Assembly (NCBI RefSeq): GCF_003334765.1
Contig: NZ_QOWT01000005.1
DNA length: 64,000 nt
Direction: 5' to 3' (one strand)
Source: Escherichia coli
Lineage (GTDB): Bacteria > Pseudomonadota > Gammaproteobacteria > Enterobacterales > Enterobacteriaceae
Below, one piece after another: positions 13,358-26,330 of this stretch. The position numbers and the translations under genes are program-made. The stretch's first letter is position 1. Each line of letters starts with the position of its first letter. The notes beneath the pieces were generated by a model. The model was not told where the DNA came from, searched no databases, and was given only the letters and a program-made list of their open reading frames with translations.

Positions 13358-14050
13358 CTAGTGATAACCACGCGCGGTCATAAAATCCGTAATCGCTTTT
13401 TCTGCATCAATCAGCACCTTTTCCAGTGGCTGATTAGCATCGATATCAACCAGTTGTGCACCACCAAAGGTTAACTGTGGCGTTATGGCTATCTTTCTTG
13501 CCAGCGATTCCCTTTTGTGGTCAGGCTTACGCGCGCAGGCCACGTCTAGATCGACATTGAGTTTGATGACCAGATCAGGTTTATGGCTCGCCATCCAGTG
13601 AAACGCTTTACGTTCCTGGCTTGCCAGCCATGAGACAAAACGACCACCTTCAATGTTAGGTGGGAACACTGTACCATCGTAAGCGCCAGGAATTTGGTCC
13701 TGAGGATAACGGTCGGTTAGAACAATTAACCCGCGACGACGACAGGCAAGCATATGACGAAAGCGCAGTAAGCGACGGGCGACAAACGCTGTAATTACCA
13801 GCGCCGGAACAGGGCCAGGCAATTTTTTTGCTGTTTTCACCTGATTTCGTTCAATTGTTTTATGTAAGGATTTTCCCATGAACGGTAATTTTGTCACTGC
13901 ACGACCGACATTTCCGGCCTGTTTTCCTAAATGAACTCTTTCGGCAGCACCATATTTTTCGACAACGGTAATGAGATGTTCACACACCGTTGACTTGCCT
14001 GAACCATCGCTACCAATAACGGCAATTAATGGAGGTGTTATTGACTGCAT
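13358..14050 (-). CDS. yghT: P-loop NTPase of unknown function (YghT/YghS/YghR paralogue family)
   Basis: 230 aa; Walker [11 protein letters not shown]; shared motifs DRYPQ and ARKPDH with the two downstream paralogues. Confidence 0.8.
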
Positions 14051-14223
14051 GAATATATCCTTTAATTTAAATATCCATTAAAAATATTTATTTGGTTAAT
14101 ATGTTTTTATGAAAGCGTAATTCAGGTCAATGTCACAATTAACCATTGTCACAATAAGGTTGAACGGATATTCTGAGCACGGACCACGTAATATTCAATA
14201 CATTATTTGCTGCCGGGTTTTTC

Positions 14224-14937
14224 GTGAATCAACGTAATATGTCAATAATTAATTCCACGCCAGTGCGTGTTATTGCCATTGTAGGATGTGATGGTTCAGG
14301 TAAATCGACCCTCACGGCAAGCCTGGTAAATGAACTGGCAGCAACAATGCCAACAGAACACATTTATCTCGGGCAATCGTCCGGGCGAATTGGCGAATGG
14401 ATTTCACAGCTCCCTGTTATTGGCGCACCTTTTGGGCGTTATCTGCGAAGTAAAGCGGCACATGTGCACGAAAAGCCCTCCACACCGCCTGGCAATATGA
14501 CTGCGCTGGTTATCTATCTGCTTTCCTGCTGGCGGGCGTACAAGTTTCACAAAATGTTGTGTAAAAACCAGCAAGGCTATCTGCTCATCACCGACCGCTA
14601 CCCGCAGGTTGAAGTGCCGGGTTTCCGCTTTGATGGCCCGCAATTGGCAAAAACCACGGGCGGTAACGGTTGGATAAAAATGTTAAGGCAGCGCGAGCTG
14701 AAGCTGTACCAATGGATGGCGTCTTATTTGCCCGTATTGTTGATTCGTCTTGGCATTGATGAACAAACCGCGTTTGCGCGTAAACCTGACCACCAACTGG
14801 CAGCGTTACAGGAAAAAATCGCCGTTACGCCGCAACTGACATTCAATGGCGCAAAGATCCTTGAACTGGATGGTCGGCAACCAGCCGATGAAATTCTGCA
14901 AGCGTCACTACGCGCAATTCACGCTGCGCTTTCCTGA
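14224..14937 (+). CDS. yghS: P-loop NTPase of unknown function (paralogue 2)
   Basis: 237 aa; Walker A VGCDGSGKST; DRYPQ and ARKPDH motifs. Confidence 0.8.
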   Translation: MNQRNMSIINSTPVRVIAIVGCDGSGKSTLTASLVNELAATMPTEHIYLGQSSGRIGEWISQLPVIGAPFGRYLRSKAAHVHEKPSTPPGNMTALVIYLLSCWRAYKFHKMLCKNQQGYLLITDRYPQVEVPGFRFDGPQLAKTTGGNGWIKMLRQRELKLYQWMASYLPVLLIRLGIDEQTAFARKPDHQLAALQEKIAVTPQLTFNGAKILELDGRQPADEILQASLRAIHAALS

Positions 14938-14968
14938 TCACCAAAATGGATAGGGGATGATTTAACGA

Positions 14969-15727
14969 ATGGACGCACTACAAACACAAACTGTTAATAG
15001 TACAACCGCGCCGCAGCCCAACTACATTCCGGGGCTGATTGCGGTGGTCGGGTGTGATGGCACCGGTAAATCCACACTGACCAATGACCTGGTGAAATCG
15101 CTGCAACAACACTGGCAAACCGAGCGGCGCTATCTGGGGCTGCTCTCCGGCGAAGACGGCGACAAAATCAAACGATTGCCGTTGGTTGGTGTCTGGCTCG
15201 AACGGCGACTGGCGGCCAAATCCTCGAAAACCCAAAGCATGAAAACCAAATCTCCGGCGCTATGGGCGGCGGTGATTATGTACTGCTTCTCGCTGCGAAG
15301 AATGGCGAATCTACGCAAGGTTCAGCGACTGGCGCAAAGTGGCGTTCTGGTGGTCAGCGATCGCTTCCCGCAGGCTGAAATTTCGGGCTTTTATTATGAC
15401 GGACCGGGGATCGGCGTCGAACGTGCGACCGGGAAAATCAGCATGTTTCTGGCGCAGCGCGAACGGCGTTTATACCAAAAAATGGCGCAATACCGTCCTG
15501 AATTAATTATTCGTTTGGGGATTGATATTGATACTGCCATCTCCCGCAAGCCTGACCATGACTATGCCGAGCTGCAGGACAAAATCGGCGTCATGTCGAC
15601 GATTGGCTATAACGGCACAAAAATTCTTGAGATTGATTCCAGAGCGCCCTACAGCGAAGTGCTGGAACAGGCACAGAAGGCGGTTTCTCTGGTTGCCATC
15701 GTTTCTGACCGCCGAAGTTTAACTTAA
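14969..15727 (+). CDS. yghR: P-loop NTPase of unknown function (paralogue 3)
   Basis: 252 aa; Walker A VGCDGTGKST; DRFPQ and SRKPDH motifs. Confidence 0.8.
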   Translation: MDALQTQTVNSTTAPQPNYIPGLIAVVGCDGTGKSTLTNDLVKSLQQHWQTERRYLGLLSGEDGDKIKRLPLVGVWLERRLAAKSSKTQSMKTKSPALWAAVIMYCFSLRRMANLRKVQRLAQSGVLVVSDRFPQAEISGFYYDGPGIGVERATGKISMFLAQRERRLYQKMAQYRPELIIRLGIDIDTAISRKPDHDYAELQDKIGVMSTIGYNGTKILEIDSRAPYSEVLEQAQKAVSLVAIVSDRRSLT

Positions 15728-24844: not shown

Positions 24845-24975
24845 AAATAAAATGACAATAATGCGGTGGATTATATAGGCATAAAAGATAAATGAGATAG
24901 TATTTTCATCAGTGTGAAAATGAACATTGATTTAAATAATGAATTTGAGTTTTTTGTTTTTATTGTGAATGATAT

Positions 24976-24995
24976 TTAATTTATGAATATATTAA
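24976..24995. promoter_or_regulatory. Inverted repeat TTAATTTAT-GA-ATATATTAA in the divergent promoter region between the lipid operon and yghO
   Basis: 19/20 identical to the perfect palindrome at 11614-11633. Confidence 0.3.
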
Positions 24996-25187
24996 GAAGG
25001 AGCCTTGTCCGGTCGCCTTAAATCGACAAAAGGCATTGTGGCGCTTCTGTGTAGTCTCTGACCTTATCGTAATCATTAATAAATACTATTTATTCGTCGT
25101 TTGTATTCATTGGGTTGATTATTAAGGTGCCGTTCGTTGCTGTTGCAACCTGTTTGTCACCGTTAATTATTTGTTACCCACAGAACT

Positions 25188-26330
25188 ATGGAATGCGATC
25201 TGCTGATGATTAAAATTGAAAAAGTAATTAATAAAAATGACCTTAAGGCATTTATCGCTTTTCCGTCATCACTTTATCCCGACGATCCAAACTGGATACC
25301 CCCTTTATTCATTGAACGCAACGAGCATTTGTCTGCGAAAAATCCGGGGACGGACCATATCATCTGGCAGGCGTGGGTGGCAAAAAAAGCGGGGCAGATA
25401 GTTGGGCGTATTACCGCGCAAATAGATACCTTGCACCGCGAGCGTTACGGCAAAGATACCGGTCATTTCGGCATGATTGACGCCATTGATGATCCGCAGG
25501 TTTTTGCCGCGTTGTTTGGCGCAGCGGAAGCGTGGTTGAAGTCACAAGGTGCAAGTAAGATCAGCGGGCCTTTCAGCCTGAATATCAATCAGGAAAGCGG
25601 ATTACTGATTGAAGGTTTTGACACTCCGCCCTGTGCGATGATGCCACACGGCAAACCGTGGTATGCCGCGCATATTGAACAACTGGGTTATCACAAAGGC
25701 ATTGATTTACTGGCGTGGTGGATGCAGCGAACCGATCTCACTTTCTCTCCGGCGCTAAAAAAACTGATGGATCAGGTGCGCAAAAAAGTGACCATTCGCT
25801 GCATCAATCGCCAGCGGTTTGCCGAAGAGATGCAGATCCTGCGTGAGATTTTCAATTCTGGCTGGCAGCACAACTGGGGATTTGTGCCGTTTACCGAACA
25901 TGAATTCGCGACCATGGGCGATCAACTTAAATATCTGGTGCCGGACGATATGATCTACATCGCTGAGATTGATTCTGCACCCTGCGCGTTTATTGTCGGC
26001 TTGCCAAACATCAACGAGGCGATTGCCGATCTGAACGGATCGCTCTTTCCCTTCGGCTGGGCAAAATTGCTGTGGCGTTTAAAAGTCAGCGGTGTGCGAA
26101 CTGCGCGAGTACCGCTGATGGGCGTGCGGGACGAGTATCAGTTCAGCCGCATCGGCCCGGTGATTGCGTTGTTATTGATTGAAGCCTTACGCGATCCGTT
26201 TGCCCGCCGGAAGATCGATGCGCTGGAGATGTCATGGATCCTCGAAACCAATACAGGCATGAATAACATGCTGGAACGCATTGGGGCAGAGCCGTACAAG
26301 CGTTACCGATTGTATGAAAAGCAGATTTAA
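25188..26330 (+). CDS. yghO: YghO-like protein, putative acyl-CoA N-acyltransferase (GNAT-like); intact here
   Basis: 380-aa ORF convergent with glcC (syntenic position of yghO); alternative start at 25206 (MIKIEK). GNAT fold assignment is from memory of family annotation, not verified. Confidence 0.6.
   Translation: MECDLLMIKIEKVINKNDLKAFIAFPSSLYPDDPNWIPPLFIERNEHLSAKNPGTDHIIWQAWVAKKAGQIVGRITAQIDTLHRERYGKDTGHFGMIDAIDDPQVFAALFGAAEAWLKSQGASKISGPFSLNINQESGLLIEGFDTPPCAMMPHGKPWYAAHIEQLGYHKGIDLLAWWMQRTDLTFSPALKKLMDQVRKKVTIRCINRQRFAEEMQILREIFNSGWQHNWGFVPFTEHEFATMGDQLKYLVPDDMIYIAEIDSAPCAFIVGLPNINEAIADLNGSLFPFGWAKLLWRLKVSGVRTARVPLMGVRDEYQFSRIGPVIALLLIEALRDPFARRKIDALEMSWILETNTGMNNMLERIGAEPYKRYRLYEKQI

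Follow-up and report, generated by a model that had tools for sequence, protein, structure and literature searches.

A 64,000 nt stretch of Escherichia coli DNA (contig NZ_QOWT01000005.1 of assembly GCF_003334765.1, hereafter the window) contains, between pitB and glcC at positions 13358–26330, a locus of thirteen intact genes that includes yghT, yghS, yghR, yghQ and yghO. We conclude that this locus is probably the Enterobacterales version of a bacterial pathway for sphingolipid synthesis, flipping and export. The synthesis of a sphingolipid and its dedicated export are the parts of this explanation that are held with high confidence. That the three kinases YghT, YghS and YghR, a protein with a CHAD fold and the flippase YghQ form a module acting on the head group of this lipid is the reading we lean towards, and the more specific proposal that the head group is a phosphoanhydride chain on ceramide is tentative and rather doubtful. 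Gene coordinates were taken from an open reading frame (ORF) scan of the window and from the RefSeq annotation of an E. coli chromosome that is 100% identical to it; both place the thirteen genes where the original prediction, made from the sequence of the window, had put them, apart from two start codons that are corrected below.

That one lipid is made and then exported is, in outline, already in the literature. What appears to be new is the recognition of YghT, YghS and YghR as three ancient orthogroups of thymidylate-kinase-fold proteins, and of a conserved module of kinases, YghQ flippase and CHAD-like protein that extends to Sphingomonadales. In the available portions of their text, PMC9386255 and bioRxiv 10.64898/2026.04.12.717747 do not discuss yghT, yghS, yghR, the 274-aa ORF or the YtfJ-like gene, nor the junction in K-12, the frequency of the locus in E. 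coli or the conservation of all thirteen genes. The head-group module is without a characterised counterpart in any sphingolipid system, and can be tested in a genetically easy organism.

Conservation of the locus in other bacteria

The 274-aa ORF (orf274), which is the least promiscuous of the thirteen genes, was used as the marker for related loci. Its homologues formed 344 clusters; one genome per species was scanned, 63 loci were fetched and the thirteen E. coli proteins were mapped onto each of them by tblastn. All thirteen families were found together in 33 of the 63 loci, from species other than E. coli, in at least four gene orders and with differing flanking genes. Most of the other loci end at contig edges, and the rest are from Xanthomonadales, Sphingomonadales and Carnimonas, with fewer families, or are additional copies of orf274. 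This clustering of thirteen families is far beyond chance. As membership is conserved despite the shuffled order, a common function is strongly indicated, and the claim of the original prediction that the two ends of the locus (yghT, yghS, yghR and yghQ, and yghO) and its middle genes are functionally linked in one lipid pathway is supported.

The gene order of the window (order A) is found in Escherichia, Pseudocitrobacter, Hafnia, Citrobacter, Shimwellia, Pluralibacter and some Erwinia. In order B, which is that of Serratia, Pantoea, Klebsiella indica, Cedecea and Tatumella, yghO and the spt operon have changed sides relative to yghT. In order C, lptG2-lptF2 is inverted, yghQ-orf274 is separate and yghR-yghS-yghT is beside yghO (Sodalis and Rosenbergiella), and a further variant, order D, is found in Erwinia sp. 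JUb26, Pantoea coffeiphila and Rahnella. In the Xanthomonadales (Luteibacter, Rhodanobacter and Dyella) genes of the ends and genes of the middle are interleaved in one co-directional run, yghS-yghR-hydroxylase-aasR-cerR-acp-spt-yghQ-orf274. The unit kinase-kinase-yghQ-orf274 stands alone, in an operon-like arrangement, in Novosphingobium and Altericroceibacterium, there are three kinases in Sphingobium, and a Sphingomonas metagenome-assembled genome includes a partial kinase/yghQ/orf274 module that is truncated by the end of the contig. The Sphingomonadales are an order of sphingolipid producers. One distant bacterium has two kinases, a histidine phosphatase, a YghQ-like protein (30% identity), an orf274-like protein (33%) and a MatE protein encoded in a row.

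The tightest pair is yghQ and orf274, which are direct neighbours in 59 of 60 loci, with overlapping ends in 46. The 4-nt overlap of lptF2 and lptG2, the genes for LptF and LptG paralogues, is kept in all 49 loci that have them, acp and spt are adjacent in 53 of 53, and yghO is beside spt in all complete loci. The YtfJ-family gene is confined to the enterobacterial versions of the locus. Middle genes found without yghT, yghS, yghR and yghQ had been named by the original prediction as evidence against the linkage. Inside Enterobacterales the linkage holds, but Caulobacter has ceramide genes and LptF2/LptG2 without YghT/S/R-like kinases, and the kinase, flippase and CHAD part is therefore best viewed as an optional head-group module. 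The core module consists of thymidylate kinase (TMPK)-like kinases, a MOP-superfamily flippase and orf274, and in Enterobacterales it is joined to ceramide synthesis and LptF2/LptG2 export.

Several features of the individual loci (designated L with a number) were also recorded. The assembly with locus L042, 'Martelella alba' BGMRC 2031 (NZ_SZPQ01000026.1), is labelled as alphaproteobacterial and has an arrangement of the Enterobacterales type B with 62–79% identity to the E. coli proteins; it is probably contaminated or misassigned. In Xanthomonadales, the yghO homologue ends a run with an MdtA-like adaptor, two MdtB/C-like resistance-nodulation-division (RND) permeases and a NodT-type outer-membrane factor (L054 10804–20758, also L049, L056, L057 and L059). 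There is no LptF2/LptG2 or YtfJ-like gene near these genes, and the RND run may be an alternative route for lipid export. An OlsC/LpxO-type lipid acyl 2-hydroxylase is encoded in seven loci (L049 3449–4207, L068 14532–15275, L024 6021–6722 and four more), inserted within the locus in Xanthomonadales and Carnimonas and near a stray orf274 copy in Pluralibacter. Second copies of orf274 away from the main cluster are present in L024 and L031 (Pluralibacter) and L060 (Carnimonas), the last accompanied by a yghR-like kinase and a PmrA-like response regulator. In L061, L062, L064, L065 and L069 (Novosphingobium and Altericroceibacterium) the module adjoins a PmrAB/QseBC-like two-component system, which is on the opposite strand in L061, L062 and L069, and this neighbour hints at regulation by envelope stress.

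Ceramide synthesis and presumed lipid export genes

The right arm of the locus consists of a block of four minus-strand genes, for serine palmitoyltransferase (Spt), acyl carrier protein, short-chain dehydrogenase/reductase (SDR) and fatty acyl-AMP ligase (FAAL), and of yghO on the plus strand. According to the portions available of Padilla-Gomez et al. 2022 (PMC9386255), these are ECD_02850–02854 of E. coli B, the published ceramide pathway aasR-cerR-acpR-spt plus yghO. This locus of E. coli B/BL21(DE3) and the 'sphingolipid operons' of strain UTI89 (bioRxiv 10.64898/2026.04.12.717747) are at the same chromosomal position. In the PDB, the predicted spt product (20730–21902, minus strand) is closest to the serine palmitoyltransferases of Sphingomonas (E 5e-111), with KBL and AONS enzymes far behind, and RefSeq uses the same name. 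The start of spt is overlapped by acpR (21902–22150, minus strand), for a specialised acyl carrier protein with a Pfam PP-binding domain. The cerR (epi) product (22182–23096, minus strand) matches the Pfam Epimerase, NmrA and NAD_binding families, and is a putative NAD(P)-dependent SDR, homologous to the ceramide (3-oxo) reductase, for which a reductase role is predicted. The product of aasR (23093–24817, minus strand), a FAAL or acyl-AcpR synthetase with an AMP-binding domain, is essentially identical to PDB entry 3PBK, the E. coli fatty acyl-adenylate ligase (1283 bits). Its start had been placed at 24844 and is at 24817 in RefSeq. YghO (25188–26330, plus strand) matched no Pfam or NCBIfam model.

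Biochemical work on E. coli B, as reported in the accessible parts of PMC9386255, found that AasR acylates the dedicated AcpR, which carries 4'-phosphopantetheine, and that Spt, characterised in cell-free extracts, prefers acyl-AcpR and yields 3-oxo-sphinganine. One of the last two steps was assigned there to CerR (ECD_02852), which shares 34% identity with CC_1164 of Caulobacter (Supplementary Table 2). Published identities between the Caulobacter and E. coli proteins also include 53% for Spt and 44% for YghO (ECD_02850) and the ceramide synthase CC_1154 (98% coverage, E 1e-107). YghO is thus taken, by homology in that source and by its synteny with spt, to be a probable ceramide synthase of the bCerS type. 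The same source describes spots migrating like sphinganine and ceramide from BL21 overexpressing Spt, AcpR and AasR, and BL21 given 3-oxo-sphinganine apparently turns it into products with the mobility of sphinganine and ceramide.

The two permease genes lptF2 (18549–19619, plus strand) and lptG2 (19616–20695, plus strand) overlap by 4 nt. LptG2 had originally been predicted to begin at GTG 19535; its start is ATG 19616, within the lptF2 stop. Their products scored above the curated cutoffs for LptF (TIGR04407, 320 bits; also PF03739) and LptG (TIGR04408, 305 bits), and would be the permease subunits of a presumed sphingolipid extractor. The locus includes no ABC ATPase, as no locus protein had a significant ABC_tran domain in Pfam. 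In Caulobacter, LptF2 and LptG2 are encoded in the sphingolipid locus, form a complex and bind the housekeeping LptB, and can be deleted only when the anionic sphingolipid is not made, according to the part of bioRxiv 10.64898/2026.04.12.717747 that was available, where Fig. 2B also includes the LptF/LptG paralogues in the 'sphingolipid operons' of E. coli UTI89. Linkage of the thirteen genes through one lipid is thus in agreement with the literature, as far as the accessible parts of both papers go, with yghO as a bCerS homologue (PMC9386255) and the LptF/LptG paralogues as an exporter (bioRxiv 10.64898/2026.04.12.717747).

The locus paralogues are labelled lptF and lptG because the equivalog cutoffs are passed, and the RefSeq/PGAP name 'lptF/lptG LPS export ABC transporter permease' for 18549–20695 is likely misleading. 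LptF/LptG of Carnimonas share only 27% identity with their E. coli counterparts, and independent recruitment is therefore possible. YghT, YghS and YghR were considered as the missing ABC ATPases of LptF2/LptG2 and excluded, since they have no significant ABC_tran match and a nucleoside monophosphate (NMP) kinase fold. Upstream of lptF2 is a gene (17955/17958–18518, plus strand) for a predicted periplasmic protein of the YtfJ family with an N-terminal signal-like sequence. It is a paralogue of K-12 ytfJ (TIGR01626, 216 bits against a cutoff of 151; Pfam PF09695), and a sequence search of the PDB gave no match.

The closest known system is Caulobacter crescentus CC_1152–CC_1168 (CCNA_01210–01226). 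It has the same five ceramide genes (aasR, cerR, acpR, spt and bCerS), an LptF/LptG paralogue pair inside the locus with no dedicated ATPase, and a Polysacc_synt-type flippase, CC_1166. Its product is an anionic, phosphate-containing outer-membrane lipid, and it has CPG/CPG2 head-group genes. However, these encode a diacylglycerol kinase (DAGK)-fold ceramide kinase (CpgB), a Tam41-like protein, CpgA, and CofC-like and other nucleotidyltransferases, whereas E. coli has three TMPK-fold kinases, a CHAD-fold protein and a YtfJ-family periplasmic protein instead. E. coli also has no LptC2, which is restricted to Caulobacter according to the available text of bioRxiv 10.64898/2026.04.12.717747. The route taken by lipopolysaccharide (LPS), via MsbA and LptB2FGC, and Wzx flipping share with the proposed pathway a cytoplasmic assembly on a lipid anchor, a flip and an extraction of the LptFG type. 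They differ in that the anchor for the E. coli locus would be ceramide, not lipid A or undecaprenyl diphosphate, and the flippase is of the MOP type and not the ABC transporter MsbA.

Kinases, CHAD-fold protein and flippase

The products of yghT (13358–14050, minus strand), yghS (14224–14937, plus strand) and yghR (14969–15727, plus strand) are P-loop proteins in which the features of the TMPK fold, namely the P-loop, a DRY/DRX motif and basic lid residues, are all found. The P-loop GxDGxGKST, DR[YF]PQ and the lid motif RKxDH are invariant in 22 of 22 aligned sequences from all three orthogroups, and the P-loop and RKPDH motifs of YghT are invariant in its family. In a neighbour-joining tree, T, S and R are three ancient orthogroups, which have been retained since before the spread of gamma- and alphaproteobacteria. 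The Sphingomonadales kinases fall in or beside them, one of the two being within the T clade. Because three ancient orthogroups have been kept, the three kinases are not redundant. YghT and YghS are named 'dTMP kinase' by RefSeq/PGAP. This name is doubtful, as the scores of the three proteins against the NCBIfam dTMP kinase model TIGR00041 are 24–33 bits (25 for YghS, 24–25 for YghT and YghS), far below the cutoff of 83.25, and their matches to Pfam Thymidylate_kin (PF02223) are not significant. We also considered YghT, YghS and YghR as homologues of the Caulobacter ceramide kinase CpgB; this was rejected, as CpgB has a DAGK/LCB5 fold with a GGDG motif and the E. coli proteins have a P-loop and the TMPK fold. 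Papers on yghQ, yghR, yghS and yghT in K-12 (on chlorhexidine adaptation, an mlaA/silkworm screen and FlhDC SELEX) concern the truncated K-12 genes and were uninformative.

The kinase family has 350 representatives at E < 1e-30. Among them are fusions to MOP flippases (P0347 and P0370) or to a GT4 glycosyltransferase, and tandem kinase-kinase proteins (further members are P0321, P0241 and P0242). Some relatives are about 500 aa long, with an uncharacterised N-terminal domain, and are encoded beside Wzx, Wzy and sulfotransferase genes (L073). The fusions and the neighbourhood tie the kinases mechanistically to MOP flippases. In E. coli, the flippase is the full-length YghQ of 449 aa (15773–17122, plus strand), a Wzx-like member of the MOP superfamily with matches to PF01943 (Polysacc_synt, E 3e-8), PF13440 (Polysacc_synt_3, E 1e-7) and an NCBIfam MOP flippase model (E 8e-9, below the equivalog cutoff) and a GRAVY score of 0.69.

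The 274-aa ORF (17122–17946, plus strand), recorded as orf274 or 'Ybl138', is translationally coupled to yghQ and encodes a cytoplasmic helical protein. Pfam, NCBIfam and PDB sequence searches with it were all empty, and only a search by fold was informative. Its predicted structure is confident (pLDDT 88.7), and the relatives retrieved by Foldseek from AFDB50, at 26–42% identity and TM about 0.9, are annotated as 'CHAD domain-containing protein' and come from Sphingomonas, Zymomonas, Acetobacter, Komagataeibacter, Gluconobacter and Pseudomonas veronii. In a second homology search, the best 120 matches were all from Sphingomonadales, with no Zymomonas or Acetobacter relatives among them. The structural model thus predicts a CHAD fold (paired helical bundles); as the Pfam CHAD profile finds no match, the assignment is by fold. 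Polyphosphate is a ligand of CHAD domains (10.1101/567040 = PMC6537752), and in orf274, whose pI is 9.2, at least 16 Arg, Lys and His positions are invariant, including the cluster K85, R88, R90, K92, H93 and R95. The literature search found no paper that mentions both a CHAD domain and sphingolipid.

A co-occurrence of such kinases with a CHAD protein has a precedent. Polyphosphate is made or used by the PPK3 operon saci_2017–2021 of Sulfolobus acidocaldarius (PMC12995831), whose products are SixA, PPX, a CHAD protein and two dTMPK-like paralogues. As in E. coli, at least two thymidylate-kinase-fold paralogues are encoded together with a CHAD-fold protein; the PPK3 kinases act on phosphoanhydride chains, not on dTMP, and the canonical tmk is encoded elsewhere. 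Unlike the PPK3 operon, the E. coli locus is without PPX and SixA, has three paralogues rather than two, all with catalytic motifs, and has flippase and ceramide genes attached. The E. coli proteins probably do not belong to the PPK3 clade, as judged by a weak score against 2plr/5h70, the neighbouring genes and a host that has ppk. S. tokodaii 2plr, which has the same sequence as 5h70, is the third-best structural match of YghR.

From these folds and their context, roles for the kinases, the CHAD-like protein and YghQ can be predicted, and the following pathway is proposed. AasR would load a fatty acid onto AcpR and Spt would join acyl-AcpR and serine to give 3-oxo-sphinganine, steps that follow the biochemistry published by others for E. 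coli B. By homology, YghO (bCerS) would N-acylate and CerR would reduce the 3-keto group, giving (dihydro)ceramide. Ceramide might then be converted to ceramide 1-phosphate by the housekeeping DgkA or, in 15 other species, by a DgkA paralogue encoded in the locus. E. coli DgkA phosphorylates ceramide in vitro. YghT, YghS and YghR could extend ceramide 1-phosphate to a diphosphate or oligophosphate (phosphoanhydride) head group by NMP-kinase chemistry. NMP kinases put phosphate onto a phosphate, and characterised MOP flippases move lipid-diphosphate-linked substrates. The CHAD-fold protein, coupled to YghQ, may bind the phosphate-rich head group and hand the lipid to YghQ, which would flip it. 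LptF2/LptG2 would then extract the lipid in the periplasm for the outer membrane, presumably powered by LptB as in Caulobacter, and the YtfJ-family protein may assist. The phosphoanhydride head group is proposed because of NMP-kinase chemistry, the binding properties of CHAD domains, the substrates of MOP flippases, the PPK3 precedent and the DgkA paralogue and hydroxylase of sister loci. The broader suggestion that most E. coli and many Enterobacterales, Xanthomonadales and Sphingomonadales can make a ceramide-linked short surface polyphosphate via YghT/S/R, the CHAD protein, YghQ and LptF2/LptG2-LptB is speculative, and we think it improbable as it stands. An additional anionic outer-membrane lipid could alter sensitivity to polymyxin or detergent, vesicle formation and host recognition, as Caulobacter lipids do.

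The DgkA paralogue, a small lipid kinase of the DgkA family (PF01219), is encoded inside the cluster in 15 loci (e.g. L005 17823–18182), in Sodalis, Rosenbergiella, Erwinia sp. JUb26, Pantoea coffeiphila and Carnimonas, and is not part of the E. coli arrangement. It is mostly between yghO and yghR, and in Carnimonas is downstream of yghR.

A number of points weigh against the sphingolipid pathway proposed here, or against parts of it. No sphingolipid from unmodified E. coli is reported in the literature searched, and in the accessible text of PMC9386255 3-oxo-sphinganine was reported on joint overexpression of AcpR, AasR and Spt; the locus is therefore possibly silent in the laboratory. The two permeases match the Caulobacter LptF2/LptG2 sphingolipid exporter by homology, and they and YghQ are candidate orthologues of the Caulobacter proteins. 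Relatives of the kinases are found in Wzx/Wzy polysaccharide loci without ceramide genes, so the family is not confined to sphingolipids, and its substrate might be a sugar or nucleotide. The ceramide kinase of Caulobacter has an unrelated DAGK fold, and Caulobacter employs no TMPK-like genes. The profile of the E. coli kinases scored 18.6 bits against the cPPK3 homologue 2plr/5h70, over the P-loop only and more weakly than against canonical TMPKs. Pfam CHAD (PF05235) matched neither E. coli orf274 nor 13 members of its family, and the signs that orf274 may bind polyphosphate, read from its sequence, are indirect. No phosphoanhydride-headed ceramide is described in the literature consulted on sphingolipids, and the head-group chemistry is pure inference. 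Finally, co-transcription of the plus-strand genes is predicted from their spacing, and promoter and terminator scans of the region gave counts that were not enriched relative to shuffled sequences.

Four other explanations were weighed. The Sulfolobus precedent can be taken further, so that YghT, YghS and YghR are a heteromeric polyphosphate kinase with the CHAD protein binding the polymer, and the product is free oligo- or polyphosphate, or polyphosphate serves as the donor for a single phosphorylation of ceramide, with no chain on the lipid. We consider this unlikely. PPX is not encoded in the locus, the kinases show no particular affinity in sequence to cPPK3, and E. coli has PPK1, whereas most predicted PPK3 hosts are without PPK1 and PPK2 (PMC12995831). 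All three paralogues keep their catalytic motifs, whereas rPPK3 is inactive on its own (PMC12995831), and a cytoplasmic store of polyphosphate leaves the tight coupling to a flippase and the gene fusions unexplained. Slightly less likely again is that the kinases phosphorylate a soluble precursor (a nucleotide, sugar or glycerate phosphate) that is attached by enzymes encoded elsewhere, or that they regulate the flippase. The NMP-kinase fold with its TMPK-like P-loop aspartate, the relatives in polysaccharide loci, the GT4 fusion and the GT4 genes beside the module in Sphingobium and L075 would fit this. However, the E. coli locus encodes no transferase or glycosyltransferase, the dTMP kinase scores are 24–33 against 83 bits, and three non-redundant orthogroups would be unusual for one soluble precursor.

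Two further readings concern the locus as a whole. If the left arm (yghT, yghS, yghR, yghQ, orf274, the ytfJ-like gene and lptF2/lptG2) were an independent envelope system for a polysaccharide or LPS variant, its adjacency to ceramide genes would be meaningless. Glycan or LPS pathways are the usual setting of MOP flippases and LptFG, the RefSeq names agree with such a role and distant relatives of the kinases are in Wzx/Wzy loci, but this is very improbable given that, in about 14 genera with differing neighbours, at least four rearrangements have left the thirteen families clustered. The interleaved single run in Xanthomonadales, the presence of the module in Sphingomonadales, the absence from the locus of any glycosyltransferase, polymerase or chain-length gene and the precedent of Caulobacter LptF2/LptG2 as a sphingolipid transporter also argue against it. 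It is nearly as improbable that the locus is a silent remnant, with intact genes that give no product under any natural condition and are dispensable. Several types of deletion (with IS5 in K-12, with IS1, and from pitB to yghD), the 25% or so of complete genomes without the middle segment and the lack of a reported native product in the literature searched are compatible with this, as are AT-rich control regions, which we infer to be typical of H-NS-silenced promoters. It is opposed by dN/dS values of 0.03–0.13 for all thirteen genes between Escherichia species, by ORFs that are intact in 4064 genomes at about 97% identity and conserved across many genera, and by the apparent conversion of supplied 3-oxo-sphinganine by BL21 to sphinganine- and ceramide-like compounds that is described in the available part of PMC9386255.

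The K-12 deletion and organization of the locus

Alignment to the K-12 chromosome showed that K-12 lacks window positions 16842–25227 (8386 bp) and has about 1.2 kb of IS5 in their place. The original prediction that K-12 keeps only the yghTSRQ and yghO ends was thus borne out, with the junction mapped by blastn of the K-12 locus against the window, and yghQ and yghO were themselves found to be damaged. K-12 yghQ is cut after approximately codon 356 and its last 93 codons are lost, and the deletion removes eight genes, the yghO control region and the first 40 nt of yghO. The long-standing functionless K-12 y-genes yghO, yghQ, yghR, yghS and yghT are hence the stumps of a thirteen-gene pathway, and because K-12 broke the pathway it is the wrong strain in which to study them.

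The original prediction also described the locus as an island with a variable middle. Neither description held. Of 5426 complete E. coli genomes, 4064 (75%) carry the middle segment with a coverage of ≥80% and an identity of about 97%, and about 25% are without it. Carriers include BL21, the uropathogen UTI89, the enterotoxigenic strain B7A, and Shiga toxin-producing and O55:H7 strains. The whole locus is at the same site in E. whittamii and in genomes of further Escherichia species, and E. albertii encodes the 274-aa ORF at 88–89% identity. GC content is 0.46–0.57 across the genes, like that of the flanks, and dips only at the two divergent promoter regions, and RefSeq annotation shows no integrase, tRNA, IS or other mobility gene at the borders of the locus within the window. 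Other strains have independent deletions, one IS1-linked and one spanning pitB to yghD. A horizontally acquired genomic island is excluded by the ordinary GC content, the distribution, the shared site across Escherichia and the IS-linked absences. Because the middle segment is widespread, other Escherichia have the locus at the same site and the GC content is flank-like, K-12 is explained by a loss and not by a gain elsewhere: the locus is ancestral in Escherichia, vertically inherited, and was secondarily lost in K-12 via an IS5-linked deletion. Purifying selection acts on all thirteen genes (dN/dS 0.03–0.13 in comparison with E. whittamii; yghT, 0.09). About three quarters of sequenced E. 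coli carry a complete, selectively maintained locus that would serve sphingolipid synthesis and export. The automatic names 'dTMP kinase', 'LPS export permease LptF/LptG' and 'lipopolysaccharide biosynthesis protein' are misleading for its genes. In some E. coli with larger deletions, the 274-aa ORF is fused to GspM (protein cluster P0032), and in L070 (NZ_CP135680.1) a truncated pitB is joined directly to yghD, so that the locus and the glc operon are missing, as are some of the type II secretion genes.

Within the window, yghT is divergent from yghS across a spacer of 173 nt. The genes yghS, yghR, yghQ, orf274, the YtfJ-family gene, lptF2 and lptG2 form a co-directional plus-strand run, and the original statement that they are spaced by 45 nt or less, or overlap, was correct (the intervals are 31, 45, −1, 8–11, 30 and −4 nt). 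The run converges, as predicted, on the lipid operon, with lptG2 and spt 34 nt apart, and yghO is divergent from aasR across a 370-nt spacer. A consensus scan found a promoter-like site, TTGTCA-17-TATTCT, 5' of yghS (14146–14174, plus strand), which is a lead only. The block TTGTCAC...ATATTCT that includes it is kept in Escherichia, Pseudocitrobacter, Hafnia and Citrobacter, and in Shimwellia the −10 is slightly diverged (ATATCCT). A TGTCAC direct repeat in the yghT-yghS spacer was rejected as a regulator box, since it corresponds to the −35 region and species other than E. coli keep only one of the copies. The gap between the convergent arms contains a GC-rich hairpin, CCCGCCGTGG / CCACGGCGGG (20693–20727), found by a scan for terminator-like sequences, with T-runs that are weak on either strand. 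The spacer between aasR and yghO (24818–25187) is an AT-rich divergent control region of about 40% GC and is deleted in K-12. Scanning 12000–28000 against Rfam gave no RNA family with E <= 0.1. A GC-rich repeat-like segment of about 84 nt (…GGGGCGATCCCTCGCCCCTCGGGGAAAGGGTTAGGGTGAGGGTGAAAA…, window 26337–26420) separates the stop codon of yghO from the 3' end of glcC. K-12 has 9 nt in its place, so that the last codons of glcC are strain-dependent (771 nt vs 765 nt).

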